NCBI GenBank assembly: GCA_000091205.1
Contig: AP006492.2
DNA length: 64,000 nucleotides
Reading direction: 5' to 3' (one strand)
DNA from: Cyanidioschyzon merolae
Taxonomy: Eukaryota
The translations under genes and the position numbers were made by a program. The notes beneath the pieces are model-generated. The model did no database searches and was not told the DNA's origin. It saw nothing but the letters and a program-made list of their open reading frames with translations. Positions within the stretch are counted from its first letter, which is position 1. The number at the start of each line of letters is the position of its first letter. Below are positions 3 through 45,395 of this stretch, one piece after another.

Positions 3-1562
3 CGGAGGGCCGTGCTTTCCTGTTCGGCTCGTTTCTGTAGCCAGAGTAAGGTTCCGAACGCGTACAACGCTGGCACGAAGCTCCTAGTAACAGCCTGCCG
101 AGGCGGCGCTCGGCTCCTTGTGGCAGACGCTGCTTCAGAAGTAGCTGCTAAAGCAGAAGAGCCGCCCGCCAGGGGCAGTCTCGAGAGTCGCCAGAAGCAA
201 AACGGTTCGAGAACGGCAGACGACCGCATTGTCGTGATCGGGTTGTCGCACCACACTGCGAGCGTTGACCTGCGTGAGCGGCTCGCAGTTCCTGAGTCAG
301 AATGGAAGGAGGCTGCAGCTCTCGTTGTCGAGGCCTGCCCAAGCGTGAACGAGGTTGCTTTGCTGTCCACCTGCAACCGCTTCGAAGTGTACTTTGCATG
401 TGCTGACACGAAGCGCGGTATTCTAGAGGTAACAAAGTTCCTCAGCCAGCGGAGCGGTATCGAAATACCAGAACTGCGAAGCCATCTCTTTATGCTCGTC
501 GAAGAGGATGCCATTTGGCACTTGTTACGCGTCTCCGCTGGTTTGGACTCGCTCGTTGTTGGTGAAGGTCAGATCTTGGCACAGGTGAAACGATGCTACG
601 AACGAGCGACGGAGCCGGGCGGCATGGCTGGAAAACTGCTCACAAGGCTGCTCAACGCAGCAGTGTCAGCGGGGAAACGTGTTCGGACTGAAACAGGTAT
701 ATCGAAAGGAGCTGTTTCCATTAGCTCGGCTGCTGTAGAACTGATGGTTGCACGGTACGCAGACGACATCCTGGGGGGCCTACATGCAGCTCCAGTTGAG
801 GATATGAACAACGTTTCAGCCGCTTTGACGAGTACGCAGGTCTGCATTGTTGGAGCTGGTGCCATGTCACGGCTTCTAGTGACGCACTTGCTCTCACGAG
901 GTGTGACCCGCATAACGATCGTGAACCGGAGCTTGCAGCGGGCACGTGACCTGCTTAAGCAGTTTCCAGATGTAGATATTGTTATCCGGCCTATGAGTGA
1001 ATTGTTTGATGCGGTGATCGAAGCAGATGTCGTCTTTACATCCACATCATCTCGTGAACCTCTTCTTACCGCGGATAACCTTGAAGAACACTTCTCCAGA
1101 GCTGAAGCCGCTCTGCACTCTCGAATCTTCATTGACATATCGGTTCCTCGGAATATTGCGGAGGACGTGAATAGAATCGACGGTGTTCACGCGTACAACG
1201 TTGACGACCTTAAGGCGGTGGTGGCACGTAATCAGCTACGTCGCCGCCGCCTGATGATCGAAGCGGAAAATCTGTTGCGGGATGAGCTGCGCCAGTTTCG
1301 AAACTGGCAGTCGAGTCTGGGTTGCATTCCGGCGATAACGAAGTTGCAGGATCGAGCGGAGGATATCCGGCTCGAGGAGCTGGCGAAGGTTACGGGGAAA
1401 CTCGCCGACTTGACGGACAAGGAACGCGATGCTGTTGAGCGTCTCACCAAAGGAATCGTGAACAAGCTTCTACATGGCCCGCTAAGTCATCTTCGGGGGT
1501 TACAAGACATCGACGAGCGGCGAGAAACAATTAAGAACTTGGAGAGCATGTTTCGCCTATAG
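3..1562 (+). CDS. hemA: Glutamyl-tRNA reductase (GluTR/HemA). It is 5'-partial: the frame is open to the window edge, and the apparent 'M' at position 12 is GTG.
   Basis: Motifs 'VVIGLSHHTASVDLRERLAV', 'LSTCNRFEVY', 'LDSLVVGEGQILAQVK' and the NADPH-binding stretch 'VCIVGAGAMSRLLVTHL' are the HemA hallmarks. An N-terminal extension is consistent with a plastid transit peptide. The stop is TAG at 1560-1562. Confidence 0.85.
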   Translation, partial: RRAVLSCSARFCSQSKVPNAYNAGTKLLVTACRGGARLLVADAASEVAAKAEEPPARGSLESRQKQNGSRTADDRIVVIGLSHHTASVDLRERLAVPESEWKEAAALVVEACPSVNEVALLSTCNRFEVYFACADTKRGILEVTKFLSQRSGIEIPELRSHLFMLVEEDAIWHLLRVSAGLDSLVVGEGQILAQVKRCYERATEPGGMAGKLLTRLLNAAVSAGKRVRTETGISKGAVSISSAAVELMVARYADDILGGLHAAPVEDMNNVSAALTSTQVCIVGAGAMSRLLVTHLLSRGVTRITIVNRSLQRARDLLKQFPDVDIVIRPMSELFDAVIEADVVFTSTSSREPLLTADNLEEHFSRAEAALHSRIFIDISVPRNIAEDVNRIDGVHAYNVDDLKAVVARNQLRRRRLMIEAENLLRDELRQFRNWQSSLGCIPAITKLQDRAEDIRLEELAKVTGKLADLTDKERDAVERLTKGIVNKLLHGPLSHLRGLQDIDERRETIKNLESMFRL

Positions 1563-2025
1563 ATTCGCGATAGCAGCCCAGAGAGAAGCTCGCCTGGCTT
1601 TGCCTTGAAAGGGCATTGCCGGGATGCGGGAGACCTGCATAGCTGCGTGTGATCGCTACGGTAGCTACATCAGTCAAGAGCTCGCGACTGAAGTGTACCT
1701 TTGCCGAAAATGCGTGGCACATGTCTCATACGATCCTAACGTAGCCTAGATGACTTCGTGAACTAGTCTGGACATTTGTAGCCTTATGTTCTCTGATGCT
1801 TCAGTCTGTATATGAGGCGACCGCAGATAACGGGTTTATACCTACCGACTTTTCACGCGACACATAAAAAAGTTATGGGCGCCTTGGACTTGCTCGTTGC
1901 GAGCCCGACACTATCGAAGAACGTCGCAATCCCAGAAAATTGCTACTGTTGTAGTCTTTGAACTCAACTTGGTCTCACCCTCGATGCTTGTGATCAAATG
2001 CATTCTCGCAGTGTATCGTAGGTTA

Positions 2026-2910
2026 CCGAAACCAGTATGAAATGTACCACACAGATCTGATACCGATTGCCTTCAGGATAATTCCTACTAAACAGTGCAA
2101 CGAGGACTGCATTCCTCCTTCAGGCCAGTGATACCACAGTACTCAGATGGTTGAGGAACACTGACAGAACCACGAATATGCGCTCAGCGCCAAAAAACCG
2201 ATATTTTCAAAGCCTGCTTGCGGTCAATGGTGTAAAACGCCCCGTTGATGACTCTAAACAAAGCAAAAGCCACGATAGTAGCCACCACTGGCGCCTGTGA
2301 GGCTCAACATCTTGTTCGTGTGGTTCTGGAAACAAAACACTGGGATACAGTCGCAAAAACAGAGTCCTAGATCAGGAACGGCCATCTTCCACCGAAACCG
2401 CATCGACAGCATTCCTGGAATGTTGCAATCCGCATAATGCAGCGGGACGTCGGTCTGTTGCTTTCAGTCGATGAGACTTCCTTCTGGCGAAGCAGTCCGA
2501 GCGTATATGGGTATTCGCTGCGAGGGAGCCCGTTCTAAGTACAATCGAACGCGAAGAGAAACGGGATACCATCATCTGTTCGAACCGCAGTGGATTCATT
2601 TTGCGACCTCAGTTTGGACTCCCAGTCAAGGCTCATACACAGCATCAACCACTTTATGGAATTATTGAAGACTGTCCCCTGACGCCTAGCGATGTCCTTG
2701 TATTGGACAAGGTGATCATTCACCTTTCCCTTTGCGTTCGAAGTTTTGCCGATTCTATCGGGGTAGGGCTGCTTTCTGTTCCTCAGTAGGCTTCGTATTT
2801 TAACGGCATCAAAGGAGCGTTTCGTATCGTGGAACGTAATCATCGCACCACTGGCCGAGTCGCTGAAGCGTTCAGCACACAGTGACTCCGAGGCACATTT
2901 CTTCATTCTT
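2026..2910 (+). repeat. Repeat IR-A, left copy (about 885 bp, no recognisable coding content). It pairs in inverted orientation with 16937-17825 and has a diverged third copy at 44060-44770.
   Basis: Manual alignment. The short ORFs 2471..2668(+) and 17178..17375(-) are identical apart from one residue, and 2372..2599(-) matches 17247..17474(+). The nucleotide match starts near 'cgaaaccagtatgaaatgtacc' and ends near 'ctccgaggcacatttcttcattctt'. Confidence 0.8.
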
Positions 2911-3059
2911 GCGAAAGTCACTCTCCGTCGGAGAAGTTCCCCAACTTAGGGCGTAAACAAGCGCATTCATTTGAAGAAATGAAAAGCCAGGGGACCTAAA
3001 GGACATGGAAGCCGAGGAGGCTGAAGGGCCGGTGTCGCCGGCTCCCGCAAAATAAACGA

Positions 3060-3410
3060 GCGGAATCCTGTTCTCGCTGACCATCGAGCGAAGAAGAGAG
3101 GAGATGGGCGAAACAAGGCATTTGTCCTACGGGGCGATGAAAAGACTAATGTGGCACAGAGGGCACAAATTCTGATAATCATGGCATTAATGAGTTCCAT
3201 CAGAGGCACCAAACGCATGGAGTTTGTGAAACGAGAAATTAACACTGCAATCAGTATCAGCGGATGTGCGGTTCTGAGGAAGAGGCCTCCGGAGTTGAGA
3301 TAATCCAAATTTGTGGGGGAATTTCTCAAGGTGGAATTCCACGGCGACAAGTTGAAGCCAGTAGTAAGGGGCCGGCCGAGAACGACTGAGAGGCGTCTGC
3401 ACATCGGTGG
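3060..3410 (+). pseudogene. 3' fragment of a family-A TnpB/Fanzor-like ORF, immediately downstream of IR-A.
   Basis: Translation 'KRMEFVKREINTAISISGCAVLRKRPPEL*' followed by '..[21 protein letters not shown]' is homologous to the C-terminus of 26406..27143 ('KQRMEFVNRGFNAAISIRRCAVLKTR...KLKPIAGGWSKKTGRRLHVGV'). It contains an internal stop. Confidence 0.6.
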
Positions 3411-3523
3411 CGGACGTTTTGTCTAGGGCGGGCGGTGCGCCGCTCACCATCAAACTGCACCGCCTATACAACGTTTGTCGCTCGCAAAGCATTCATTGTT
3501 TTCGGTGTGTAGAGCGTGGGTAT

Positions 3524-4969
3524 ATGATTCCCCACGTTCGTTCAGTTCTGGGCCGTCTGGGGCGCCAGGTACGTGCACCTCTGGGACTCAGTGCTCGACC
3601 CGTGAGAGTCTGGCACCGCGATCCGAGGATTCCCAGCTGGTCGCACCGCTATATTTGCTGGGTAGGTGCGCTAGCATGTTCGGAGCAGCGTCTGCAGCGT
3701 CCACTCGGGAGCCTTCTGCAGAAGATGTGTAAGAGAGGGCTTAGTATGCCCTCAGCAACTCGTTCTAGTCCTTTGGAGACGGTTCCCGTTCCTACGATGG
3801 GAGAGTCTATCACAGAAGGTACACTTGTGGCGCTGTTAAAACACGTTGGCGACGCGGTGAAAGAGGACGAGGTTGTGGCACAAATCGAGACGGATAAAGT
3901 CACGGTTGATGTTCGATCTCCTGTATCTGGAGTAATACGGGAGATCATGGCAGCCGAGGGTGACAACGTTACCGTTGGTAAGGACTTGTTCCGAGTTGAG
4001 GTGGGCGCACAAGGCGAAACAGTCGCGGCACAGCAGCGCCAGGCAGAAAAGCTTTCTCAGAGTGAACCTGAGCCCAATCACATCGAGCCGCAAGAAGAGC
4101 GATCAGGAGGGCCAGCAGGGTCGCCACCGCCACCACCGGCAGACGTTGAGCACGGTGAAGAGCACGCAGAGGCAGCGGCTGCGCAACTCACGGGGCGCTC
4201 TGTTGTCCAGCGTGGAGCAGCGGCAGCTGCAGCTGCAGGCGCGCTCCTGCAACAGGACGAAGCCGGCGAGCGTCGTGTTCCCATGAGCCGCATGCGGCGT
4301 CGTATTGCAGAGCGGCTTAAGCATGCTCAGAATACTGCTGCTATGCTAACGACATTCAACGAATGTGACCTGACGAGCCTTTCGGAAATGCGCGCAAGCT
4401 TTAAGGATGGTTTCGAGAAACGCTATGGGTCAAAACTGGGATATATGAGTGCCTTTGTGAAAGCCTCAGCGATTGCACTCGAGGAGCAACCTGAGGTGAA
4501 TGCTGTAATCGATGGCGATGAAATTCTCTATCGAGACTACGTGGATATATCTGTCGCAGTAAGCACGCCTACCGGACTTGTGACCCCGGTGCTGCGTGGA
4601 GTGGAGAAGATGAGCTTTGCGGATATTGAACTGCAGCTGGCCGATTTTGCAAAAAGAGCTCGAGAAGGTCAGATTCAGTTGGAGGAGCTCCAAGGCGGTA
4701 CGTTCACGATCTCGAACGGAGGCGTATTCGGCAGTCTTCTCAGTACCCCCATCATTAACATGCCACAATCGGCAATTCTGGGCATGCACGCGATTCAGAG
4801 ACGGCCAGTCGTTGTCGGAGACGAGATCGCTATCCGGCCTATGATGTATTTGGCCCTGACGTACGACCATCGCTTAATAGACGGTAGGGAGGCAGTGACG
4901 TTTCTACGTAGAATCAAAGCGCTCATTGAGGATCCGAGAAGAATGCTAGTTGGCGTTTATGGCTTTTGA
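3524..4969 (+). CDS. DLST: Dihydrolipoamide succinyltransferase, the E2 component of the 2-oxoglutarate dehydrogenase complex, with a mitochondrial presequence.
   Basis: The lipoyl domain carries '[47 protein letters not shown]' with the lipoyl-lysine in 'ETDKV'. An Ala/Pro-rich linker follows. The catalytic domain carries '[32 protein letters not shown]' and '[14 protein letters not shown]'. The start was chosen at ATG 3524 ('[29 protein letters not shown]', an Arg-rich amphipathic presequence). The ORF is open from 3407, and ATG 3725 is an alternative start. Confidence 0.85.
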
Positions 4970-7331
4970 AAGTTCCTACAGATAGATATCTGTTGCAGAT
5001 CTCTTAACCTTCGCCTCTGGTAAATCCTGCTCATGCTATTCGGAGCACTCGGTACGCTTTGCATCGTGCTGGGCGATCGCGCATGCTGCTCCCAGAAGAC
5101 GACGCAAACCAAAGCATTCCAGAATAATCCGCATATAGCACGTGTTGGTGCCCAAAGCACACCGTCTCAGCAAGCGCAATGTCGCTGAAAAGATGAGCCT
5201 ACATACGCTCACCAATCGCAAACTCGAATTAGAGCCCGTCTAGGCACCGCAAAGCTTTTCTGTAACCGCTGGTGACCACGGAAGTGGATCCGACGCCGCG
5301 GCACGCGTCTGCGGTAGGCTCGGGACCCAGACGGCTACAGCCGTCCGACCCGTCTAGTGAAGAATCAAACTGAAATGAAACTCTGACCTTCCTGCTGTGA
5401 TCGTACTTTGCATGCTTTTCCGACCGTTTTCTAGATGTGCAGCCCCGGCACTCGAACGATGGCAAGAAGCGCTTCAGGATTCATACGTAGTTTCCTGGTG
5501 CTGAGTTGCCGTTTCGGAGTCACTGCTTTGACGCTTTGTCACAGGAACTCGGTACGTAATCGAAATCGATATGGTTCGCTGCGCTCTAGGGCAAGGTTCA
5601 TGAAATAACAGCCGCGACCATCGAATTCATACGCAAAAGAATGCATTATTTTTGTTTTGTCACATAGTGCATGCTCGCATCACGCGTCTTGCATGTTTTC
5701 GATGTTTCTGTTTCAAGGCACCCGTGGGTGCAGTGATTCGCGCCAGCGGACTGAGGTGGAAAAGTAGTCGACACCGTTTCTCGATGGCATGCGCACAAGC
5801 TCATTCCATAAGCTTACTGAACCTGGTCAAGCCCAGTAATCAGTTCCGCTCGAAAAACAAGTCATCCCCTATTTGGGGCCATCATCCCCAAGAGAAACCC
5901 GGCATCGTAGTGGGCGTTCACGAACGCGGAAACCGGGGTCGTCATCGAGGATGGCCCCAGGTACCCCCGGATGACGTGTACTGAGCGTTGCAACAATCGT
6001 GTACGCAATGGAAAGTAGCCTTCGGACGAGCGTGTATGCTGGACGTACGGGAAGACCTGTCCAGTGTCAAGTGTGACCGCTGCGAAGCGGACACCGACGC
6101 TGTATACGAATGAGCTGACTGTAGCGAGCGACGTGTAGGTGGCAACTCGCGCTTGTGCATGAAATGCGTCAACAGCGGCTGCGAGTGGCGAAACCGACAC
6201 TTTCTACATTGCCATGAACGTCCATTGATTGCCAACAAGGGAGCTGGAGAGACAGATGAGACCGACATTGTTACAGCCGCGGATACGAGACAGGAATGGA
6301 AGCAGTCGTTCCAGGGCAGACAAGGGATGTTTTTATGTAATTTAGGGCGAGATCTGAAGATCTGTGTACCCGCCCGAGTTCGAAGAACCGTGCCTTTTTA
6401 TGCTGACATTGGTGTAGTTCTCTTTTAACTGATCGCAAACAACGCACCTATGCCGACATTTCACATGCTGTGATGTCGTGCCTGTGGTACAAGCTCAGCG
6501 CTGACACCTGGTAACCCTGCATTGCAAAAAGTTCTGCTATCCAGGATGCACAATTGTCAAGATTCCGCTCGTGATGCCAGGCACCGAAGCGCGAACCAGG
6601 ATGATGCTCCGCATAAAGATTTACTAGATATCTCTCTCGCGGGGAAGACCCTGCCAGTATGTATGAGTAATGGACAACTCTTGACTGCCTTAAGCTTCCC
6701 CGAAAGGACAAAGGCTCTTCACTATTTGTGCGGGTGCTTTACTTGCGTGTTTGAACTGTCGCAGACTTTGGTGCACTGCCAATACCTAAAGGGAACTTCG
6801 GGAATGAGCCACCAGGCCAAACGCACCGCCGCTCTGCGCTGAGAGCTCTCAGAATATTTTTGAGTACTAGCATGCTGGAGTTCGCAGACTCGTACTGCTC
6901 CGGTGCTGTGCATCGCGAAGCGTAGAGCCGAACTTCTCACATTAGCGGTATGTTAGGGGTTTCCGACAGAGACGAGAGTTCGCGCTTTGAGCTGTACCAG
7001 CGCTAGACGTTCTAGAAAATCAGGTATCTATACGTAGTTTGATCATCTACGCTGAAAGCTCTGCAAGTATTGAACGAAGAAAAAAAGCGAAGTTGGGAAT
7101 CTTCCATGTTACCACTACACCAGCAGCGCAGCAGGATGCGCTGCCCGGGAATCGTGCGGGATTACATAACCCGGGGCAGAAGAAGATTCCATATATCAAC
7201 GCAACTTAATCTCCAATTCAGTATATAAAGGTCGAGCTATTGTGACATTTAATCGGAACCCGGCCGCCGTACTGCTGGCTGCTCGAACCTACATATTTCA
7301 CGATCCGTAGTTGTGAAGTCGCTCTTGGGCG

Positions 7332-8075
7332 ATGCCTCAAGTCTCTGGCGACCTGCGTCGTTACGAACTTGAGCTGTCGCATGTTATAGAATCAGCAAAT
7401 GCAGATATTAGCAGCCTCGCCTCCGAAGCTGGTGCTGAAGCTCGGCGACACGTCGTGTCCAGAATAACGCACTGGCTGCGGACGGCGAACGACTTGCTCG
7501 CCCGGATGGAGTTGGAGGCCAAATCCACCGAGGGTGATGACCTCGACAGGGCGGCCGCGGAATCCGTAGTCTCCGACGGAAGGCAACGAGTCGTGCGCTT
7601 GAGGCGAAGTCTGCGGGGTGTGGAGCAGGCACTGCAGCGAGAAGAACTAATTTCGCGCTCTCAGCAATCCTCGGGTCCGCGGGTCGCCCGCGAGGTGGAC
7701 GCAACCGACGCGCCCTTGCTGGACACCACGAAGGAGCACCGCGCTGGTGTAGCTGGTGTAACGGACACACTCGTGAAAGCTTCTCTCCACATCCAGGATT
7801 CAAAGCGCGTGCTTGCTGAAACAGAGTCCGTTGGTGCGAATGTTCTGGCGGACCTTGAAGCTCAGGGCCGCACGCTTGAGCGTTCGTATAGCCGCTTGCA
7901 GAGTATGGGTTCTCGTCTGCTCTCCAGCAGTGGGATCATCTCTACGATGCGTGGCACAGAGCGAATGCGACGACTGCTTATCCTTGGATTGGTAGGTGCC
8001 GTTCTTCTGTCTATTGGTGCGTTGATGACGATCAAAGTTTGGCCGCACAAAGGCGGCGTTGTTGACGGGAATTGA
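7332..8075 (+). CDS. Qb-type SNARE, Vti1-like, with a C-terminal transmembrane anchor.
   Basis: The SNARE heptad region 'ETESVGANVLADLEAQGRTLERSYSRLQSMGSRLLSSSGIISTMRGTERMRR' is followed by the hydrophobic tail 'LLILGLVGAVLLSIGALMTIKVW'. Overall architecture is an N-terminal helical domain, then the SNARE motif, then the TM segment. It resembles the Vti1 'TE.IG...L..L..QRE.I......L' pattern. Confidence 0.55.
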   Translation: MPQVSGDLRRYELELSHVIESANADISSLASEAGAEARRHVVSRITHWLRTANDLLARMELEAKSTEGDDLDRAAAESVVSDGRQRVVRLRRSLRGVEQALQREELISRSQQSSGPRVAREVDATDAPLLDTTKEHRAGVAGVTDTLVKASLHIQDSKRVLAETESVGANVLADLEAQGRTLERSYSRLQSMGSRLLSSSGIISTMRGTERMRRLLILGLVGAVLLSIGALMTIKVWPHKGGVVDGN

Positions 8076-8142
8076 TGTGTGCATGCTGCACTGTACTCAA
8101 TCCAGACTGGCATCTGGGGTTCTTGAGACGAATTACTTGGAC

Positions 8143-8379
8143 ATGAAGCGTGAGTATGCTCGAGCTACCAGCAGCAACAAACTTTTCGACGTGTGCACGC
8201 GGATGTTCGGTATGTTGCTGAGCAAAGGCCCTAATGTCAAAGCTCACCGGCCATGCCGTGACTGTGGTACTCCAATGTTCTTGGCGCGAGGAACAGAGTT
8301 TGGCCAGCTCACGGATAGACCATTTTTCTCCTGTCAGCAGCAATGCGCGCTTGCTCTAATGCAGATATTTTTCTTGTAA
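8143..8379 (+). CDS. Small ORF carrying a GRF-type zinc-finger-like motif. It may be a real small gene or part of the 3' UTR of the SNARE gene.
   Basis: 'HRPCRDCGTPMFLARGTEFGQLTDRPFFSC' fits the GRF zinc-finger pattern C-x2-C...(G/D)R-x-F-F-x-C. There is no other support. Confidence 0.2.
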   Translation: MKREYARATSSNKLFDVCTRMFGMLLSKGPNVKAHRPCRDCGTPMFLARGTEFGQLTDRPFFSCQQQCALALMQIFFL

Positions 8380-10978
8380 AGAAAGATCAAACGTATACAA
8401 TTTCAGCTTCCAGGTGCTACTATCTACAGGAAAACTGTAGAAGGGAGCCTTTCCCAAGAATCCAGCTAAGCTTCGCTAGAATGCGTCAGAAATTTCACCC
8501 CGCTAAAATGAATATCGTTGAACATGAACGATCGCTCCAACGTGGATCGCCGTTTCCAGGGTTTCGCTGACCCATGATCGCTAAACATACCCAAACGGTT
8601 GCATCGCTCTGGATATAATGTTTAGAGTTGTCTATGTGCTGCACTCGATTAAATGTCAAGCTCCCTTACTATTGTTCGATCGCTCGAAAAACACCCTGTG
8701 ATGACGAAACGCTCTGGGACCGTGACTAAAACGGACTTTCTGTCAGGCACCCCTGCGTTTTTGCGTGATATTGCCGACTTGTACCAAATAATAAAGCACC
8801 ATTATCGTACTCCAAATGCCCAAGGGAACCGTTCCCCGTGTATATATACGGCGTTCCTGCCTTACCGTGTTGCTGACTGCAAAAAATTGGGAACTTTTCT
8901 CGAGGCGGTGAACAACTGCCCCTTCGCCCAGCCACTGAGTTTCTTTCATCGGAATTGCTCGGCGTTTTAGCAGATTGCGCGCATTGGAGACTAAGCGATT
9001 TCCTCGTTATTTTTTTTGAAATAAAGCTGCTGGGCGCACTGGAAGCACAGAACATTTCCTGATGTTCGTCGGGCGGTTCAAGTCTCGGTAAAGAGAGTGC
9101 ACGCGCACATTTGTTGCGGAAGAAATTCCATCTCAGCAAGCCACGCACCTTCTATCGCCTCCCAACCTGACGTTCGACCAGCTTACTGTGCACCTTTCTG
9201 TGCGTCCAGGTCTGTTTATCTCTCCTCTCATCTGGCGGTTTCCGGGTCACCCATGATTTTGCATTTCTTTATGTCGTACTAAATTTCTCAATAGGAATCG
9301 CAGAGAATCGATTCCTGCACAGGCTGTACCATTCGTCGAAAGTGCAGCAGCGTAGCTCTCGTGCTTTACAGCACGTCAAGCGAATATGCTCCTTTCAGCA
9401 AAGGACTCGTCTTGTCTTACATTTCGTTTTCAAGGTCATTAAAAAATAGTCCGAATGTATGCCTCTCGTTCCGGTACAATGAGAACGGTTAGCGACTCAG
9501 AGCGGCATCAGCCACTCGAGCCAAAGATTATCGGCTTGAGTCATTGTGACATTCTTAGACACTCTGGCTGTAGTGAACTTAGCATCAGCCTCTGCTCGAT
9601 GCGAAGTTCAGAGCATCGACATGGGTCCTGATGCCGTCATTCCACTTGTTGGTATGCATCCTGGCTCCTTCCATGCCTGATTCACGTAATTAGTCAGCTC
9701 TGAGAAAACTGAGCAGCTTCATCTGCCTGTTTTCAAGCCCTCGGCTCCAGTCTATTGATTTAGAGGTACTGCCACGGCCTATATGCTCTGCAACCGGGGT
9801 TCCACGCGCACCGCAAAGTCGTTTCCTGCATCTACATTAAACGGCAGAGAATTCATCTAGTTCTTCGACGCACTCCGCGCCCTCACAAAAGACATGCGGA
9901 TGGATTTGCACTCGGTCGCTGCCCACCCCGCAGACTTCTTTCAAGTTATTCCATTAAAATGAAAGTCTCTGTTCGATTTTTGCCACTGTTCCCTCCAAAG
10001 TCCCTCGAATCCCTCATAATAGCTCGAAGAGGCCAGCCTTTGCTCACTGAGAAGTCCATGCAATACGGTACACCGGTTTCTGCCGTAATATGCTGACCCT
10101 CGATGTAAGATATATGGACCAAATCGAGTAGACGCTATAAGAGACAATGCCACTCGAATTTGGGGAGGGAGCGTACTCAGATCTGGAAGGTTTCGTCCAG
10201 GAAAACCTTGCAGCACAAGATGGAAGGAACACGTGCAGAAAGTTTCAACCATCCTCATGATATGACTTCTGTCGGCCGAATGCCGAGAGCAAGACGAAGA
10301 ATAGGTATGATAGAAACTGGCTCTCGCTATCGTTGCGGCATCCCATCTGCCACCACCGGCTCGCAATTTGCTTCCATCGATGTCGCAAGAGCCCTCTCCG
10401 TCAAAGATCGCTTAATTCCGCCCGACGCGGGTAGGCACAACGGGTACTGGGCCAAGAGTATGCGCTTCATACAGCGCTCGAGATTTAGCGGGTGCATGGT
10501 TTTGTTTTGTGGGTTAGCTTGATACTTTTCGGCACCAGCGATGAAGGTACTTTCATTATCGATGTGGCATGAGCAGACGACAACGTATTCTGGGAAGCAC
10601 GTGTTCTGATTTCTGATTCTGCGATGACGGCGCTTTACATATTCCACCCTAAGCATCAGTCGTGTTAACTCACGAAAGGTCGATTGAAACATTTCAATGG
10701 AATGCGGACAGCTGGCGTTCTGCATCGAGAGTTCGTACACAGAGTTGTGAGACGGGGAGCTTCAGTTCAAGGCGAGCGGAGCGACATTCCTCGAATGAGG
10801 AGGTACACGGTGCCTAATGGCATCCTGCTCCCTAGTTTTGGAAGATTCTCCCGGGTGAAGTGTTTTAGCAGGGAGTCTTTGATTGCGTTTCCAGAATAGT
10901 CTTTTCGCTTGGAAACTTTTCCTCTTCTGTGTATCCTCTTCGACAGTTCAGGGGAAATTTCCATGTTTTTCTTTTACT

Positions 10979-12172
10979 GTGCGAGGTGGCATGGATGCGG
11001 TGGCAACACTCCATGCCCGGTTTTCTCTCGAAATACAGACGCGATGGACAGGCGTTGATACAGAAACTCGCTCCCTCCTATGTATACGTCTCGTTCTACT
11101 TGAGGATCCATTCCTCACCTTTCTCGAACTGGGAGCCCCAACCGACCGGAGAGCTCGTTTCCGCTCGTTTCCGCCCACGAGCCGAGCAGCAACACAGCAG
11201 TTCCTGTGCACCAATAGCAGACAACGCATTGTCGAAGAACGATTCGCCATCGAACCGAGTCGCGGATGTAAAAGACTCGCCTGCGCATTGGTGCCCATGG
11301 AAATGGCGTTCGCCAACAGAGCAGATGCGTTCGACTGAACTCGACCGGGGCGAATAGGCTGGTACGAGGAGCAGCGCAGCGCCAATGTCACCTGCGTGCT
11401 CGTTGACCTCTTCAGGGTGATGGAAAGCGACGTTGACGCAGAGTCGCACGGAGCCGTGTAAGAACGAGACGCCGTGGAATGCTGCGAAGAACAAGCATGA
11501 GGCGTTCAAGACTTCGACCCGTTTTCCGACGCAAAGCAAAACACACGACTCAGTCGCCGTCTGGGCAGATACTCTCGGAATGCGCGTGTGTCGCTTCTCT
11601 GTGAACACTTGTTGCTCCCGCTCTGGGTGCCCGTACACATGTCCCCCGTTTCTCCCGAACGAGGTCTCATCGAGTGTGACGAACATCTGCCATCTGCATG
11701 ATAAGCGTTCGCATGCCCCCGCGAAACTGGCAGCACGGAGCTCAGCGCGGAACGTTCTCGCACAGAGGCGCGTTTTTTCCTGTGTCCATGTGCGTCCCTT
11801 TATCACCGTCCGTTTCAACTGTGCGGAGATTGCACACCTTGTGTCTCTTAGATGCTATTTCGCAGATAATATATGTGGAGTGGAACGCATTCATGTCGGG
11901 AATGCAGTGCAGACAGAGCCAAATGTGCTCTGTCTGGTGAGTACGACTTGCAGCAAAAGGACCACGAGAACAGCGGCTGATCTACCTGCCGACCAGAGAA
12001 TACCTGACATGGACAATAAAGACCGTTTTCTTGGCAAGCTAGCACAGACGGCAGGAAGTGTTCCCGCGACCGTTCTCCCACCTACGGGATACAACCTTTT
12101 GTTGAATATTCGCGAGGTAAGAAAGGTATAGCAAAGAAAGCCGTGCTGGTACAGGTGTTCAAGTATTTATTT
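10979..12172. repeat. IR-B left arm (about 1.19 kb), an inverted repeat partner of 13527-14712.
   Basis: Paired ORFs have identical lengths and near-identical sequences on opposite strands: 11433..12131(+) against 13566..14264(-), 232 aa with about 6 differences; 11096..11818(-) against 13879..14601(+), 240 aa identical. The nucleotide ends were aligned by hand: the left inner end is '...ggtgttcaagtatttatttatctgtgg' and the right inner start is 'agtaaatacttgaacacctgtacc...'. Confidence 0.85.
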
Positions 12173-12606
12173 ATCTGTGGGAAATAGAAAAAGATCAAAG
12201 TAGACCGCCTCTATAGAAGAGCAACTGTGTACGAAGGCCTCTGCCTGAACTATATGCAGCACCTAGATCCAATCATTGAGAATACCGTTGCACGTTCGAC
12301 ATGTTTCTAAAGACACATTCTAGATACGCACACGTTCGCAGATGTTTCAGGTATTTGGATGCTCGTCGCGTGTCCGCCAGCAGCCTCATTGAGGAACAGC
12401 TCATTATCCGCTTGACCAATTCTTTCCAAAAGCAACCGATTCGATGTGCGCCTACGATGCGCTGGGGGTCGCCCACGGCATGTTCTAAATTTGGTTCCAA
12501 GTTTGTCCTTGTTATTACAGAATTGATCGGATTGGGTGCAGCGGCGTCCGGCGCCACCGCAGTGCCGAAACGAATGAAGAGTCGTCTTCGTCTAAGAGTA
12601 ACAACC

Positions 12607-13266
12607 ATGGTTACGACGTCGATCAAGCTGCAAAAGCGTCTCGCGGCAGCTGTTGCCGGGGTTGGTAAGAAGAAAATATGGGCTGACCCGGCAGAGATCG
12701 AGAAAATCGCTCTTGCGAACTCACGCCAGTCCGTGAGGAAGCTGCTACGGGATGGCGTCCTTGTCCGCAAGCCGCCAGCAATGCACTCGCGTGCGCGTGT
12801 ACGTGAGCGCCTTGAGGCGAAGCGCAAAGGTCGCCACACAGGACCAGGTAAGCGGAAGGGTACAAGGGACGCACGCTTGCCCCAGCGCGTCGTTTGGATG
12901 CGGCGGCAGCGCGTTCTACGACGTTTGCTGCGCAAATATCGCGCGCAGGGTAAAATCGATAAACACCTCTACCATGAGCTTTATCTCAGGTGCAAAGGCA
13001 ACGTCTTCAAAAACAAGCGAGTGCTTATGGAGCACATACACCGGGCTAAAGCAGAGAAAGCACGTGAGAAGGCCATTTCTGAGCAGCTGGAAGCGCGCCG
13101 TATGAAGAACAAACTCCTTCGCGAACGTCGAGCAAATCGCGCGGAGGAACGCCGGTTGAAGGAAGCAGGCATTTCAATGGAAACTACTGAGCGAGAGGGT
13201 GAGACTGCGAGCAGGTCTCGGCGCCGACGTGGCCGCCGCGACGAAGCACTTGCCGCTGATAGCTGA
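12607..13266 (+). CDS. RPL19: 60S ribosomal protein L19e.
   Basis: '[112 protein letters not shown]' matches the L19e consensus essentially end to end (the 'KRKGRH.G.GKRKGT..AR.P' core). ATG is at 12607. The ORF-track extension from 12301 is an upstream in-frame artefact. Confidence 0.9.
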
Positions 13267-13526
13267 ATGCGCTTAAGCACAATGCGGACGGCTTCGTTCC
13301 CGGTAGCCTGTTACGCAGCATCTGGAATCCTCGTCGAATGACATACCAAACTGAGGCACCTAAGAACTTGCATCCCTGATACTGAAACGCAAGTCTATCG
13401 AGTTCATCGGTCCGCTTCCGCGCTACATTGTACTCCGGCGGTCAGCAGCAGCTCGATTGGACAGCGCACAAGAAGGCACTTTCACTCTACCAGGGACGCT
13501 TTAAGCGTCTTGTTCTACTCAGATCA

Positions 13527-14712
13527 GTAAATACTTGAACACCTGTACCAGCACGGCGTTCTTTGCTATACCTTTTCTATCTCGCGAATATTCAACAAAA
13601 GGTTGTATCCCGTAGGTGGGAGAACGGTCGCGGGAACACTTTCTGCCGTCTGTGCTAGCTTGCCAAGAAAACGGTCTTTATTGTCCATGTCAGGTATTCT
13701 CCGGTCGGCAGGCAGATCAGCCGCTGTTCTCGTGTTCCTTTTGCTGCAAGTCGTACTCACCAGACAGAACACATTTGGCTCTGTCTGCACTGCATTCCCG
13801 ACATGAATGCGTTCCACTCCACATATATTATCTGCGAAATAGCATCTAAGAGACACAAGGTGTGCAATCTCCGCACAGTTGAAACGGACGGTGATAAAGG
13901 GACGCACATGGACACAGGAAAAAACGCGCCTCTGTGCGAGAACGTTCCGCGCTGAGCTCCGTGCTGCCAGTTTCGCGGGGGCATGCGAACGCTTATCATG
14001 CAGATGGCAGATGTTCGTCACACTCGATGAGACCTCGTTCGGGAGAAACGGGGGACATGTGTACGGGCACCCAGAGCGGGAGCAACAAGTGTTCACAGAG
14101 AAGCGACACACGCGCATTCCGAGAGTATCTGCCCAGACGGCGACTGAGTCGTGTGTTTTGCTTTGCGTCGGAAAACGGGTCGAAGTCTTGAACGCCTCAT
14201 GCTTGTTCTTCGCAGCATTCCACGGCGTCTCGTTCTTACACGGCTCCGTGCGACTCTGCGTCAACGTCGCTTTCCATCACCCTGAAGAGGTCAACGAGCA
14301 CGCAGGTGACATTGGCGCTGCGCTGCTCCTCGTACCAGCCTATTCGCCCCGGTCGAGTTCAGTCGAACGCATCTGCTCTGTTGGCGAACGCCATTTCCAT
14401 GGGCACCAATGCGCAGGCGAGTCTTTTACATCCGCGACTCGGTTCGATGGCGAATCGTTCTTCGACAATGCGTTGTCTGCTATTGGTGCACAGGAACTGC
14501 TGTGTTGCTGCTCGGCTCGTGGGCGGAAACGAGCGGAAACGAGCTCTCCGGTCGGTTGGGGCTCCCAGTTCGAGAAAGGTGAGGAATGGATCCTCAAGTA
14601 GAACGAGACGTATATATAGGAGGGAGCGAGTTTCTGTATCAACGCCTGTCCATCGCGTCTGTATTTCGATAGAAAACCGGGCATGGAGTGTTGCCACCGC
14701 ATCCATGCCACC
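13527..14712. repeat. IR-B right arm, an inverted copy of 10979-12172.
   Basis: See the left arm entry. The outer end is near '...catccatgccacctcgca' (14693-14712). Confidence 0.85.
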
Positions 14713-16439
14713 TCGCATAGTTAAGGGGCACAAGAAGAAGGAAGCGGTATATATAAGCATCAACGTTGCGTTCGAACTACTTTGCAAAGCGCGGTGGCGG
14801 CGCTTGGACAAGGTTTCTCGATAACAGGAAAGAAATACCGGAAACGTTTATCCGGACGATGGAGACCGACGGGATGCCAACCAGCATGCACCTTGCGGCA
14901 CGTATGCCAGAGTCGAGCAGTCAGACTCATTTCCAACCGTTCAAGGTTGATGAACAAACAGAGACTTTGTGGTCGGGGTCGATCCGTGACACTCGGCATC
15001 ATAGCCGTCTCCGTACCCCTGAATCAAGAGGGCGGTGCTAAAGACCTACAAGGAGAGCAGATAAAGCAGCTCGAATTTTCCAGTGCTCGATATGATCGGC
15101 AATCGGGCATGGTAGACGCCAGGCGGCATACCATCCAGAGGAATGGTTGCTCGAGAGCCCATCTCGACGCCCTGAGGACGGTAGCGCGCAGAGGGTAACG
15201 CTTTGTGCGCCTCACTCAGAGGGGGAGCTCATGAGCGTCAAACTGGCTCCAGCGGACGATCTTTGACAAGAACGCGTGGTGCCGAGCAGGGAACGCACAT
15301 GGTGCCGGCTCCGCAGAGGCGAGAAGCTCGTGTTCGCAGACTTTGTGGATGATGTGGGAAACGAAGTGACCGCCCAGTAGGGTCGATTGACGGTAGCCTA
15401 TAGCGCTGGACCTACTCCAGCTCACAAAGTCTGCAGTGATGCTCGCTCCCGTCGAGAGCTTGCTACAAGTTCAGGGATTGATTCTGCACGATTTCGACCG
15501 ACGCATTCACACCGTCATGCACGCAGCACGATCTCGGGAACAGGCTGAAACTTGTCGAGAAGAGGCGATTGAATTAGAGACCGTTGCACGAGATGGTGTG
15601 CGATACGCTGCTTGAACGCCCGATGGCGAGGCAATCGGAGATGCAGAGACTGCTGTGGTGTGCTTTCACCAGCCACAATGTGCTCAGGTTCTTTCTGCAT
15701 CGCGAGTTGATCGCCTCGATACACATCTGGCAATGTCTCGTGGTTCCGAAGCGCACAGCGGCTGTGTCGAGCGAACTTTCGGGAAAATCGTCTAGTTCTG
15801 CTTGTTGGCATTGCACTGACTGCCTGCAAGCTGTCGGTAAAAGCGCATCAGTGTTCAAGAACTGCCCGACTGAATGCCCGCTCGGAGCATAGCGCTGGTA
15901 CGGTATGGGTGAGCAATCGAGCGAGGCTGAAGCGGCCTGCTCATACAACGGGATCGGTTTCTCGGGGCAGAGGATGATTGGTAATGGTGTTCGAGTATTC
16001 GATCTTACTGCGTTTGAAGCAACCTAGAGTCCTGTTCCAAATAATCTCTTTTGCCCGAGATAGAACCCATTTGCATTTGCGCCGATATGAGCAGGTCCGT
16101 GTGGCAACGTGGATGAGAGCGTTCTGGAACTCGAATCAGAAAGGTGCGTTCCCTCTCAGCATCCAGCTAAACGCAACTTCTGAAACACGAAACTCTATTC
16201 GATCCGTAGATTCGACCAGCGAATATTTCGTCTTCCCTTGCTCAGAGAATTTTGTACGGATAGAGATACGATGGAACCGCGGCCTCCGGGAGTTCCGCTC
16301 ATGCACATCAACTGTTGCAACGGGTGGTGCTTTTGGCAGTCCCCATCGCACTGCAAGAACCTGGTCCATCTGCGTTGCGTCAACGAGCACCACGACAGAA
16401 GAGCTACGAATTTTCACAGTAATTGTTCTCAGATGGCGT

Positions 16440-16900
16440 CGCAACATACATTTGTTCAATGGAACGAAAACGTTTCGCGACCGGAGGATAAATTAAGCCC
16501 CACCCGCAGACGTCTCCCAGCCATTTTCGACTGGTCTCCTGCTATCGTTTCAGTTTTTATCCAGCCACATTTCGAGACTGGTAGGCCCTCCCACAAAGTT
16601 GGATCGCCTCTGCTCCGCGGGCCTCGTCTGCAGCACCGCACATCTTCTGATATTGAGAGCGGCGTTAATGTTTCTGTTTATGAACTCCATACGTTTCTTG
16701 TCGCCGCTTGTACTCTCCAGTGCAAGTGATACTCGAACTCGTGCCCTCTGTGCTATTTGCTGCTTTGCCAGCTCTCTGTACTTTTCTATTGCCGAAGCGC
16801 TTCGCTGGCTCTTCTCCATTGCGAACTTTTGAAGAGTAGACCCCAGCTCATCCCATAGATTTCTTGATTTTGAAAATGAATGCACTACTTTCTGCTCGTA
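16440..16900 (-). pseudogene. 3' fragment of a family-A TnpB/Fanzor-like ORF plus the conserved 3' tail, on the minus strand and adjacent to the IR-A right copy.
   Basis: ORF 16550..16885(-) contains 'KKRMEFINRNINAALNIRRCAVLQTRPAEQRRSNFVGGP', a RuvC-III-like 'N..NAALNI' motif. The reverse complement of 16440-16500 reads 'gggagacgtctgcgggtgggg...ggtcgcgaaacgttttcgttcc', which matches the element's 3' tail. Confidence 0.6.
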
Positions 16901-16936
16901 GGTGAGGGTCGTGCCGGAGGGATAAGGAATTGCAGA

Positions 16937-17825
16937 AGAATGAAGAAATGTGCCTCGGAGTCACTGTGTGCTGAACGCTTCAGCGACTCGGCCAGTGGTG
17001 CGATGATTACGTTCCACGATACGAAACGCTCCTTTGATGCCGTTGAAATACGGAGCCTACTGAGGAACAGAAAGCAGCCCTGCCCCGATAGAATCGGCAA
17101 AACTTCGAACGCAAAGGGAAAGGTGAATGATCACCTTGTCCAATAGAAGGACATCGCTAGACGTCAGGGGACAGTCTTCAATAATTCCATAAAGTGGTTG
17201 ATGCTATGTATGAGCCTTGACTAGGAGTCCAAACTGAGGTCGCAAAATGAATCCACTGCGGTTCGAACAGATGATGGTATCCCGTTTCTCTTCGCGTTCG
17301 ATTGTACTTAGAACGGGCTCCCTCGCAGCGAATACCCATATACGCTCGGACTGCTTCGCCAGAAGGAAGTCTCATCGACTGAAAGCAACAGACCGACGTC
17401 CCGCTGCGTTATGCGGATTGCAACATTCCAGGAATGCTGTCGATGCGGTTTCGGTGGAAGATGGCCGTTCCTGATCTAGGACTCTGTTTTTGCGACTGTA
17501 TCCCAGTGTTTTGTTTCCAGAACCACACGAACAAGATGTTGAGCCACACGGGCGCCAGTGGTGGCTACTATCGTGGCTTTTGCTTTGTTTAGAGTCATCA
17601 ACGGGGCGTTTTACACCATTGACCGCAAGCAGGCTTTGAAAATATCGGTTTTTTGGCGCTGAGCGCATATTCGTGGTTCTGTCAGTGTTCCTCAACCATC
17701 TGAGTACTGTGGTATCACTGGCCTGAAGGGGGAATGCAGTCCTCGTTGCACTGTTTAGTAAGAATTATCCTGAAGGCAATCGGTATCAGATCTGTGTGGT
17801 ACATTTCATACTGGTTTCGATCTCC
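16937..17825 (-). repeat. Repeat IR-A, right copy, inverted relative to 2026-2910.
   Basis: See 2026-2910. Confidence 0.8.
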
Positions 17826-18660
17826 TGCTATACACCACAGCGGGAGTGAAGCAAAATTGAGTCGAACGACTTTGAGCCTAAGTGCACTCTTTAAATTTGG
17901 TGAGCTGATATGATGCCTACCAGGAGTAGCAGTGCAATTTGCGTGTTTTTCACCAGACCACTAAAAAAGAGCGCATGTGCGGACCTGGAGCACGAACTAG
18001 CTCGAGAATACAGAAGTGATGTAAACCACCGATGTGTCGTGCACTGATGGTTCAGCGACATTGCAGGTCTGAGAAGCAGTATGAAAAATTTGGAGTCAGT
18101 AATCTTATCGCCTCAATAGGCCGGGAAGCGTCTTTCGGAAAGTACTCCAGTGCAAGTATTAGATACGGTGTGACAAATTTGAAGCCATTCATCAGGTCTC
18201 TTTGAGCGATGTGGATACATCTTTCAGAAACTCAGGCTAAAAGTGTTCATAATTATGGAATAAAATGGAGCTGTGCCTCTGCTCCATTCAGCGCCGGATT
18301 CGTTCATATTCTCAAAAAAAAGCTCCTTCCAGATGCTCCTCCCGTTCTGGAGAAAGTATTCGAGGAGATCGTTATGTACGCTGCATTCCGTTCACAAACA
18401 CAGCATTGCATGATGCGATAAAAACACTAGAACGCGTCCGGTGTACCGGGTTAGGCTGCTACCAAGGTTCTGCCGAACGTGGAAAACTCTAAAACAGCAC
18501 AAGACGCTGAATAGCGCGCACCGCTAGAAACAAGCCTATGCTGGTCACGTCGCGGCGCGTGGTGGAACAACGAATCCGTGTATTCCACATACACTGAAGT
18601 ACCGCATGAAAATTCCCAAAATTAAGCTGCGGTGAAATAAGTAGAACTGAAGTACTGCTT

Positions 18661-19017
18661 TCAACTTTCGACGTCAAAACGAAGCGCCTCCAGCTCCTCG
18701 AGTACGTCGTCTGGCAACTCGGCCAAGATACCAATGGCATAACAGCCCGGAACTTTTCGGCTTAGCCGCTGCCACTTTGCAACCCAGCTCACTTTCGGTC
18801 TATACAGGGCCACTAGACCGGAAAACTCTGCAGTGGTAAACGTCAGGACCCTCTCGCGGTCACCAGTTCCAGCTTCAAATAAGCCCGGACAGTTTTCGCA
18901 CCCGTAGGCTAGAAACTGCGCTACCGACTTGACCAAGCCACAGGATAGGCAGGCCCGAAGCTTGCTGGACTGGACTTCAGAGGGCACCACAACAATGTTC
19001 TCAGAGGCTTCAGTCAT
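18661..19017 (-). CDS. SPT4: Transcription elongation factor Spt4, the small subunit of DSIF.
   Basis: 'LRACLSCGLVKSVAQFLAYGCENCPGLF' is the Spt4 zinc finger (C-x2-C...C-x2-C). '...YRPKVSWVAKWQRLSRKVPGCYAI' matches the conserved Spt4 C-terminal 'SWVA+WQ....PG.YA'. The protein is about 118 aa, starting at the ATG whose reverse complement lies at 19015-19017. Confidence 0.75.
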   Translation of the reverse strand: MTEASENIVVVPSEVQSSKLRACLSCGLVKSVAQFLAYGCENCPGLFEAGTGDRERVLTFTTAEFSGLVALYRPKVSWVAKWQRLSRKVPGCYAIGILAELPDDVLEELEALRFDVES

Positions 19018-43777: not shown

Positions 43778-44059
43778 TTGTGGAAGTGCACGCCTTCTCT
43801 AGCTCCGACGTCCTTCGATGCGCTTCAGAGACCGACTACTGCACGGCTCCATCGCCAGCCGCCGCTGTTTGCCCCAAATCGGCGTTGATGCGACGTCCAT
43901 TGATCCAGCCTTCGGACGATACCCGCAGAATCCTTGTTTCGAACGCATGTTGTTCGGCGCTCAAATGCTCCCAACTCAATTTTATTCTACCCCCGCTGCT
44001 CCATGCTCCAGGGGATCGAAATAACAATCCAATGATCCGTATATATTGCAGGCGGATAG

Positions 44060-45395
44060 CCTGTTAGATGTATTCTCTACTGAACAGTGCACGGAGGACT
44101 ACATTCCTTATTCAAATCAGTCATAACACAGTTCTTTGATGGCTGAGGTACACTGCAAGAAAGACGTAGATGCGCTCTGCGTGAAAAACTGGTATTTTCA
44201 GTGCGCGCTTGCGGTAAATGAAAGAAAACAGTCCTTTGCTCACCTTACTAAAACCAAAAAGCGACGGTAGGAGCCACTATGGGCGTCTCTTTTTTCTCAA
44301 CAGCTTGTTCGTGTGTTCCTGTACACACTGGGATTCTGTCGCAAAAAAAGAGTCCAGTTCCACACACGGTTATTCTCTACCGGAATCGCAACACCAGGAT
44401 TCCTGAAACTCAGAGATGGGTATGAAGCAAAGGGGCGTCGGTTTGTTTTTCAGTTGATGGGAATTCCTTCGGATGAAACGGTGGTATCGTGTATGGGTAT
44501 TCGAGCAGCAGGGTGTCCATTGTGTTTACGATCGAGCTCGAAGCGAACAAAAGCATCCTTTGATGTGGCTGCAGTAGATTCATTTAGCGGCCTCAGTTTC
44601 GCTCGTACAGAGGGCTCATACCACACCACCCACTTCGTTGAATCATTGAAGACTTTTGCTCTTATGTTTGGCGAAGTTCTTCAATCGGAGAATGTGGTAT
44701 TCCACCACTAACGTTGTTTTCGAGCTTTTGCCGATTTTATAATGTAGAGCTGCTTTTCATTCCTTCGCACGCTCCGTGGTTCGACCCCATCGAAAGGGTG
44801 TTTTCTATCTTGAAAGGTAATGATCGCTACACTGAGCGAAACGATGAAGCTTTCAGCGAGCTGACACATCGGGGCACATGATGCCATTCTTCCGCAAGTC
44901 CATCTCCCTCCAGAAAGGTTCTTACCTCGGGCATAAGAAGCGCGTTCGTTTTCAAAATTAAAAATCTAAGGGATGAGCTGGGGCGCAGGCTTTTGAAGGC
45001 CCAGATAGAGAGAATGCAACGGAGCGCCTCGGCTGTAGTAAAGCCTGGAGAGCTGGCAGAGGACCAAATGGCACTGGGGGCACGAGTTCTGGAAATCCTT
45101 GCACTAAAAAATTCTACCAGTCTTGATAAACGCATGGAGCTCGTGCACCGAGACTTCAACGCCCCCATCCATATCAGGATGTGTGCGGCGCTGAAAATGC
45201 GACCCGAGGTGTTGACGCGAACGAACTTTGTGGGGCAGCCGCTTAGGCTCGAAGTGTGCAAGGAGAAATTGAAGCCGATGGCAGGGGGCCATTCGAAAAA
45301 AACTGTGAGAAGTCTGTGGGTCGTTATTTATTTACCCCCAGGTCGCGAAAGGTTTTAGCTCCACTGAGCAGCCGTGGAGCTTTCCCAGTCAAGAT
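44060..45395 (+). repeat. Third, more diverged copy (about 75% identity) of the composite unit, with an IR-A-like part at 44060-44770 and a family-A TnpB 3' fragment at 44830-45395.
   Basis: By hand, 44080-44230 aligns with 2091-2240 ('aacagtgca.cgaggact.cattcc...tgaggtacactg...tattttca...cttgcggt.aatg'). ORF 44993..45358 reads 'DKRMELVHRDFNAPIHIRMCAALKMRPEVLTRTNFVGQPLRLEVCKEKLKPMAGGHSKKT' (RuvC-III 'RDFNA..I'). The tail is '...cccaggtcgcgaaaggttttagctcc'. Confidence 0.6.

Follow-up and report, generated by a model that had tools for sequence, protein, structure and literature searches.

Inverted low-copy repeats with arm-to-arm conversion and polymorphic inversions are known from human Xq28 (FLNA-EMD), from the palindromes of the Y chromosome and from the plastid inverted repeat with its flip-flop. 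In bacteria, composite transposons such as Tn5 and Tn10 consist of two inverted insertion sequence (IS) copies that flank cargo. Here, we describe a pair of inverted repeats in the compact nuclear genome of the extremophilic red alga Cyanidioschyzon merolae, whose relatives perform homologous recombination efficiently. The pair lies in a 64,000-nucleotide stretch of contig AP006492.2 (assembly GCA_000091205.1), hereafter called the window. A first-pass annotation had described each arm as an 885-bp repeat, "IR-A," followed by the 3' end of a "family-A TnpB" nuclease gene, together forming a composite of about 1.35 kb that would transpose as a unit. Our analysis shows that the arms are two old, dead copies of this composite and suggests that their near-identical core is an ectopic gene-conversion tract rather than a recent insertion, a reading to which we assign a probability of about 75%.

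Mariner/Tc1-type transposons carrying a Fanzor1 gene have been reported, for example, PGv-1 and PUl-1 (PMC3627910), and Fanzor1c is associated with Mariner/Tc1 (PMC10530073). The locus resembles these elements in that an IS630/Tc1/mariner DDE transposase is followed by Fanzor1 within one element, and chimeric or deleted derivatives are common among them. It differs in that searches for terminal inverted repeats (TIRs) and TA duplications were negative, Fanzor is reduced to its last ~125 codons in the composite, all copies are pseudogenes, and their 3' terminus is that of the TIR-less CMe-1A. The latter was described in C. merolae as a family of ~150 copies, ~80% identical to their consensus, without TIRs and of unknown class (Bao and Jurka, 2013; PMC3627910). 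Full-length elements in the window and their metagenome homologues match the CMe-1 protein, and the composite has their 3' terminus. However, CMe-1A was described without a transposase, whereas in the window a fossil of the DDE_3 transposase domain repeatedly precedes related Fanzor fossils.

With inverted low-copy repeats, the locus shares a near-identical inverted core inside older, diverged sequence, concerted evolution of the arms and, among contigs, the apparent occurrence of both orientations. Unlike in those cases, the arms are only 0.9 kb long and consist of dead transposon sequence, and the evidence on orientation comes from short-read metagenome contigs only. As in Tn5 and Tn10, two inverted transposase-bearing elements bracket unrelated genes, but here the arms are fossils without recognizable ends, and nothing indicates mobility of the 15.9-kb unit. 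All parts of the locus are of known kinds (a Tc1/IS630-type transposase, the CMe-1A Fanzor1 and gene-converting inverted repeats), and no new mechanism is required. What is modestly new is the repeated adjacency of transposase and Fanzor1 in a cyanidiophyte, together with a cluster of three interleaved ~1-kb inverted pairs of 98.6 to 98.9% identity.

A probable gene-converted core within two old copies

Self-comparison of the window placed the outer arms at 2011-2972 and 17835-16874, where 962 nt are 95.7% complementary and 13,901 nt apart. Within this match, base-by-base comparison delimited a core (2027-2910 and 17819-16936) with 12 mismatches in 884 bp, i.e., 98.6% identity, and the remaining mismatches were concentrated at the two ends of the match, in the outermost ~16 bp and the innermost ~62 bp. 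This is in good agreement with the near-identical 885-bp arms of the first-pass annotation; of the ~1.35 kb given there for the arms, however, only ~0.9 kb is of high identity, the rest of the composite being only ~61 to 72% identical.

Both edges of the core were sharp (2026/2027 and 2910/2911), and at both of them diverged homology carried on in register. Outward of the core, a stretch of ~70 bp that still belongs to the element was only ~70 to 77% identical between the arms. On the inner side, the register continued at ~63% identity, and past this point the two copies were colinear but diverged, with 72% identity over 3154-3317 versus 16753-16590, ~61% over the whole Fanzor-derived tail (alignment and identity matrix) and an indel of ~60 to 160 bp in the left copy relative to the right one.

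The diverged parts of the left copy showed affinities of their own. A 22-bp segment in its 5' terminus is absent from the right copy and from a third copy elsewhere in the window but is present in L007, a fourth copy of ~72% identity that a scan of metagenomes with a conserved 31-mer had yielded. Over the terminal 60 columns, the left tail was 52 to 56% identical to metagenome contigs L001 and L002, which bear related Fanzor1 genes, and 23 to 24% identical to the right and third copies; its protein motifs, RPPEL and LKVE, are of the P0001 type. Because the 22-bp segment and the tail subfamily set the left copy apart from the right one, the two must have had separate histories before their core was homogenized. 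Both arms share identical in-frame stops and frameshifts, and the copied sequence was therefore already a pseudogene.

The marks by which gene conversion would be recognized were all found: a near-identical core, flanks in register at 60 to 77% identity, shared inactivating lesions and left flanks that group with L007 and L001/L002. A parallel exists inside the bracketed segment, in a nested inverted pair around the ribosomal protein L19e gene (10973-12177 and 13520-14724; 1,205 nt, 98.8%). Here too, the transposase part is 98.8% identical, and the adjoining Fanzor1 fossils, the right one of which is without ~0.9 kb of its 5' half, are 60% identical. Furthermore, the 12 arm-diagnostic single-nucleotide polymorphisms (SNPs) occurred in mosaic combinations on either flank across metagenome samples, which fits ongoing exchange from arm to arm. 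In several samples, the arms differed at only ~3 sites, with identical stretches of at most 677 bp.

We thus propose that the composite was amplified long ago, its copies now being ~30% diverged with a synonymous divergence (dS) of ~0.74, and that the left and right copies, independently inserted, happen to sit inverted 13.9 kb apart. Homologous recombination, either double-strand-break repair or synthesis-dependent annealing with the other arm as template, would then have converted the 884-bp transposase-fossil tract, probably stopping where homology became too poor for extension. Once present, an identical core would favor more conversion, and a crossover inside it would invert the enclosed segment. 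The effect would be structural only, namely, concerted evolution of the arms and possibly an inversion polymorphism.

Alternatively, the arms could be two relatively recent insertions of the whole ~1.35-kb composite as a non-autonomous derivative of the nuclease element. This would suit the recurrence of the junction in at least three to four copies and the 3' terminus held in common with full-length elements. However, recent insertion predicts uniform similarity along the unit, which was tested and not found: arm identity drops from 98.6% to ~61 to 72% inside the composite. Moreover, all other copies carry the divergence of ~30% (dS, ~0.74), and the unit is mostly transposase fossil rather than nuclease derived. 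We therefore consider recent insertion of the composite quite unlikely.

Another explanation is that the 884-bp core is itself a young, short, transposase-derived non-autonomous transposon that inserted twice beside old Fanzor 3' remnants through a target preference. The differing tail subfamilies of the left and right copies, the recurrence of the DDE-then-Fanzor order and the ends of the high-identity blocks of both repeat pairs, which lie close to the transposase/Fanzor boundary, would be accommodated by such an element. It should, however, have termini of its own, and the core has none: homology with the other arm, the third copy and L007 continues in register past both of its edges, for ~70 bp at the 5' edge and ~80 bp at the 3' edge, and neither inverted termini nor a duplicated target was seen at its edges. 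In addition, the metagenome scan returned just two near-identical copies, the others being ~70% identical. A young core element is in our view very improbable.

Conversion between two old copies also has points against it. Starting homologous recombination between cores that were perhaps only ~70% identical is inefficient. The position of the high-identity block, which ends near the transposase/Fanzor junction in both repeat pairs, could hint at a modular process. Mosaic SNPs as well as both isomers of the locus (see below) come from short-read metagenome assemblies, in which arbitrary path choice or bubble merging is possible. Finally, no TIRs or TA target-site duplications that would account for the composite's past movement were found. 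If conversion is correct, the locus is a clean sequence-level case of ectopic gene conversion, and probably of inversion polymorphism, arising from dead transposons in a nuclear genome of this kind. The coordinates of all features are collected in Table 1.

Table 1. Positions of the repeat arms, composite copies, transposase-Fanzor1 tandems and genes in the window
Feature	Position	Strand	Evidence or remark
Left copy, diverged 5' terminus of composite	1953..2026	+	~70-77% homologous to right, third and L007 copies
Left arm core ("IR-A"), fossil IS630/Tc1-mariner DDE_3 transposase gene	2027..2910	+	98.6% identical to right arm
Left copy, linker (start of Fanzor-derived part)	2911..2993	+	In register with right arm, ~63% identical
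Left copy, Fanzor1 3' fragment: RuvC-III region, stop codon, 3' terminus; tail of L001/L002 subfamily	3058..3447	+	tblastn with P0014/P0122, alignment, identity matrix
Segment between cores: E2o, v-SNARE, L19e, nested inverted repeat, further transposon fossils	2911..16935		Pfam; both orientations among independent contigs
Right copy, Fanzor1 3' fragment, ~125 codons plus 3' terminus with GGTCGCGAAACGTTTT	16453..16852	-	tblastn: P0014 residues 499-586, 58% identity
Right copy, linker	16853..16935	-	Alignment with other copies
Right arm core, DDE_3 transposase fossil	16936..17819	-	Self-comparison
Right copy, diverged 5' terminus	17820..17893	-	Comparison among copies
Third composite copy, ~70% identical, colinear with right copy across junction	44016..45370	+	DDE_3 E=2.5e-5; Fanzor residues 462-586 (tblastn)
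Nested repeat, left arm: different DDE_3 fossil, then near full-length Fanzor1 fossil 10860-9022 on same strand	10973..12177	-	
Nested repeat, right arm: same DDE_3 fossil, then 5'-truncated Fanzor1 fossil 14912-15796	13520..14724	+	
GGTCGCGAAA(C/G)GTTTT motif with near-palindrome GCGAAACGTTTTCGC	16467-16482 (-), 45341-45356 (+), 60201-60216 (+)		~15-30 bp before element 3' end
Tandem: DDE_3, then Fanzor	2334-2897, then 3058-3321	+	
Tandem: DDE_3, then Fanzor	11818-11150, then 10860-9022	-	
Tandem: DDE_3, then Fanzor	13879-14547, then 14912-15796	+	
Tandem: DDE_3, then Fanzor	17512-16949, then 16849-16583	-	
Tandem: DDE_3, then Fanzor	~37828, then 36624-35100	-	
Tandem: DDE_3, then Fanzor	44307-44878, then 44861-45244	+	
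Tandem: DDE_3, then Fanzor	55491-54989, then 54334-53590	-	
Glutamyl-tRNA reductase (GluTR, P0270)	12-1562		
2-Oxoacid dehydrogenase E2 (E2o)	3407-4969, ATG 3524		Pfam
v-SNARE	7332-8075		Pfam
Ribosomal protein L19e	12301-13266		Pfam

IR-A is a transposase fossil

When the arms and the third copy are translated, sequence landmarks typical of IS630/Tc1-mariner transposases become visible (LKTLGYSRKK, SVDETSF, VYGYS.RG and LLF(I/V)P.YAP.F(N/D).IE). Single copies of IR-A gave only matches below threshold (DDE_3, E=2.5e-5; IS630, E=1.1e-5). A majority consensus of three independent copies, i.e., the right arm, the third copy and L007, matched Pfam DDE_3 with E=1.3e-11 (45 bits, the cut-off being 28.6; positions 2-135 of a profile of 146) and NCBIfam IS630 with E=3.3e-14 (positions 101-277 of 299). 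No homologues were returned when the IR-A translations served as protein queries, and a profile search of the PDB with the transposase fossil gave noise only.

Judged from its profile matches, IR-A is thus not an anonymous repeat but a decayed IS630/Tc1-mariner (Pfam DDE_3) transposase pseudogene. All composite copies are pseudogenes and are predicted to encode nothing functional. We found no convincing TIRs or TA duplications in five element copies, in which short termini could have eroded at ~30% divergence.

The nuclease part belongs to the Fanzor1 family CMe-1A

Self-comparison also revealed two ~2.3-kb repeats, 24831-27159 and 57844-60203, which are 73% identical to each other and contain frameshifted genes with the motifs VDPGN, DEFRTS and NR(G/D)FNAA. 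Both are near full-length CMe-1A-type Fanzor1 pseudogenes without a DDE_3 fossil upstream. The second one, FL2, probably begins near 57510, and an open reading frame (ORF) at 57514-57870 matches the 5' end of the published CMe-1A consensus (CGATGACAAAACGTTTACATTGACCATGGATCC...).

A stitched translation of the window's Fanzor sequence matched 159 metagenome proteins at ~65% identity, and a profile search of 1.8 billion representative proteins gave 1,418 relatives. When compared to solved structures, neither the stitched translation nor a shallow profile of close homologues gave a match, and Pfam returned nothing significant on the close homologues, only a match of 0.071 to Cas12f1-like TNB. The link to Fanzor1 emerged only with a profile of 77 full-length relatives, which matched the solved Fanzor1 proteins of Parasitella (PpFz, E=1.6e-20), Spizellomyces (SpuFz, 7.6e-13) and Guillardia (GtFz, 1.1e-7). 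Similarly, an AlphaFold model built on a shallow alignment was unusable, with a predicted local distance difference test (pLDDT) of 37, and the alignment of the 77 relatives raised this value to 88. The top Foldseek matches of the nuclease model were SpuFz, GtFz and PpFz (E~1e-17; template modeling score, 0.6 to 0.7), with Cas12 and Fanzor2 families ranking lower. The published CMe-1 protein (PMC3627910 supplement) agrees almost motif for motif with the window copies and their homologues. The supposed TnpB family is therefore the old Fanzor1 family CMe-1A known from C. merolae: profile, fold and CMe-1 protein matches point to the eukaryotic Fanzor1, not to the prokaryotic TnpB.

Intact metagenome homologues carry the RuvC motifs GADPG, VDEFRTS and NRDFNAA. 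The composite copies have the RuvC-III region only and are without RuvC-I; their RD motif is mutated (KREIN in the left copy and NRNIN in the right one), and the Cys/His residues of the finger are lost. With the split D...E...D triad and the zinc finger both lacking, the composite copies are Fanzor1 fragments and not nucleases.

Near the 3' end, the right copy, the third copy and FL2 have the motif GGTCGCGAAA(C/G)GTTTT in common (Table 1). Its near-palindrome GCGAAACGTTTTCGC could form a terminal hairpin or belong to an omega RNA. In the left copy and L001/L002, by contrast, the element ends in another, G+C-rich sequence (GGGCGGG...CGCC). On L001 (162 kb) and L002 (60 kb), contigs of a hot-spring-type metagenome (JGI 3300005573), the related Fanzor1 genes lie alone among ordinary eukaryotic genes (MFS transporter, DEAD_2 helicase and PI3/PI4 kinase), and some of them have tandem acidic repeats (KHEEKKEA...QEV.DND) inserted ahead of the RuvC-I motif.

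Transposase and Fanzor1 fossils recur in tandem

Without exception, the seven DDE_3 fossils of the window have a Fanzor fossil behind them on the same strand, and the 5' truncation of the latter varies among the tandems (Table 1). CMe-1A, the class of which was left open in 2013, is in this way linked to IS630/Tc1-mariner-type transposase genes by seven tandems in 64 kb. The transposase parts of two minus-strand tandems, 35100-38216 and 53590-55745, are 67% identical to each other (37783-38216 versus 55311-55745).

The transposase fossil runs straight into Fanzor sequence in the right arm and the third copy, and likewise in L007 up to the point where its contig ends. As determined by tblastn on the right and third copies, the Fanzor part starts near the residues PAPTTRTYKE..VDE and continues through RuvC-III to the 3' terminus. 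The composite retains both termini yet is without most of the nuclease gene, only the last ~125 codons being kept. The third copy was correctly recognized by the first-pass annotation, although its identity to the right copy is lower than the 75% given there: 69.8% over 1,321 bp (44072-45370 versus 17765-16453), with homology beginning near 44016. The 3' element end of the right copy matches those of the third copy and FL2. The claim that the same junction occurs three times is clean for the right and third copies, the left tail being of a different subfamily; that the junction is not unique to this locus is borne out by the third copy and by L007 within the limits of its contig.

With the junction present in at least four copies of ~70% identity, the composite is an old and now dead family. 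Between the right and third copies, dS was ~0.74 and the ratio of nonsynonymous to synonymous divergence (dN/dS) was 0.55 to 0.79, which indicates mostly neutral decay. In our interpretation, the composite arose by internal deletion from a two-gene transposase-Fanzor1 element, kept both termini and was amplified long ago. The proposal that it is a non-autonomous derivative of a nuclease-bearing element gains from the recurrence of the junction and the retained termini, but it has to be amended in that the parent presumably carried two genes and the bulk of the unit is transposase fossil.

We considered whether IR-A might have nested into a Fanzor element and rejected this, as none of the three copies is preceded by a remnant of the Fanzor N-terminus. 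In the right (16453-17300, minus strand) and third (44400-45370, plus strand) copies, the C-terminal half of the transposase and the C-terminal fragment of Fanzor share one frame with 1 to 2 stops, and a fusion ORF of transposase and Fanzor tail may thus have resulted from the ancestral deletion. A functional fusion protein is unsupported, given the dN/dS of 0.55 to 0.79 (0.55 for the tail) and the stops present.

Both orientations of the enclosed segment occur in metagenome contigs

The contigs used for comparison were assembled independently from metagenomes and belong to the same organism, with ~99% identity to the window. In several of them, from different samples and assemblers, the repeat was found joined to each of its four flanks, and the two arms are accordingly not an artefact of one assembly. 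Two contig sets connect GluTR through the repeat to E2o, as in the window: L006/L013 (Ga0209012) and L012 (ERZ27249350). Two others are of the inverted type. L010 (JGI24721J26819) leads from the GluTR flank through the repeat into the right inner flank (17835 down to 14617), and L004/L021 (Ga0080006_1142149) leads from the flank with the Spt4 gene through the repeat into E2o (2011-5485). These are both of the junctions predicted by a single inversion. The outer flanks, GluTR and Spt4, were constant in more than 20 contigs and single copy in all contigs examined. A composite, IS-flanked transposon was rejected on the grounds that the arms are pseudogenes and the outer flanks invariant.

The suggestion that the inverted copies could mediate inversion is thus plausible, with each orientation seen in two independent short-read contigs. 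We put a real orientation polymorphism of the 13.9-kb segment in natural populations at about an even chance or slightly above.

The repeat, or its apparent inverted isomer, could also be an assembly artefact, i.e., a collapsed, duplicated or misjoined repeat. Some 20 independent contigs stop on reaching the repeat or within it, several of them precisely at the core boundary 16936; the 2:2 split of junction-spanning contigs by orientation is also what random path choice would give, and the SNP mosaics could be popped bubbles. Against this, the two copies are secure, since all four flanks are joined to the repeat in several independent assemblies, and the window arms differ at 12 sites and are hence not collapsed. 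The objection touches the orientation polymorphism only, and we consider the artefact reading very improbable. Since most metagenome assemblies break at the repeats and the few that cross them disagree, synteny and binning in this region are unreliable without long reads.

Other repeats and genes of the window

The genes bracketed by the outer arms and the nested inverted repeat are as first described, Pfam and self-comparison being in agreement. The left Fanzor1 3' fragment ends 77 bp upstream of the E2o start codon (3524). In the nested pair, a Fanzor1 fossil lies outward of the transposase on each side, and the nested transposase is only a distant relative of the IR-A consensus (27% amino-acid identity; E=1.8e-15).

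A third inverted pair consists of 5371-6420 (1.05 kb) and an inverted copy, 98.9% identical to it, that lies outside the window, ~4.9 kb upstream of its first position. The repeat has no recognized protein domain and is represented in L011 (5143-6193) and L006 (1-625). Its upstream partner lies beyond the GluTR and BRK-domain genes. The pair is interleaved with the outer pair, and L012 and L021 end ~115 to 140 bp into the 5371-6420 repeat. Speculatively, the region could be a natural recombination hotspot in which three interleaved ~1-kb inverted pairs (98.6 to 98.9%) are kept homogeneous by ongoing exchange, with segments carrying E2o, SNARE and L19e being flipped in wild populations, and CMe-1A could descend from IS630/Tc1-type two-gene transposons; we regard this broader picture as doubtful.

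ORFs are sparse in the window, which together with the SNARE, L19e and glutamyl-tRNA reductase genes points to a eukaryote with a plastid. The GluTR protein shares 79% identity with its counterpart in Cyanidiococcus yangmingshanensis and 71% with the one in Cyanidium caldarium, as expected for a cyanidiophycean red alga, and a 100% identical protein was found only in metagenomes. Rfam and tRNA scans of the window gave no matches.

The right outer flank contains an Spt4 homologue (18661-19017, minus strand), the exact protein of which occurs in 52 blocks of the contig collection, an ORF of 965 to 998 amino acids without a Pfam domain (19021-22017, plus strand) and a GNAT acetyltransferase gene (22683-23612, minus strand). 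Farther along, a dispersed ~0.7-kb repeat family of 65 to 66% identity is represented at 27793-28482 and, inverted, at 31959-32637 and 46928-47611.

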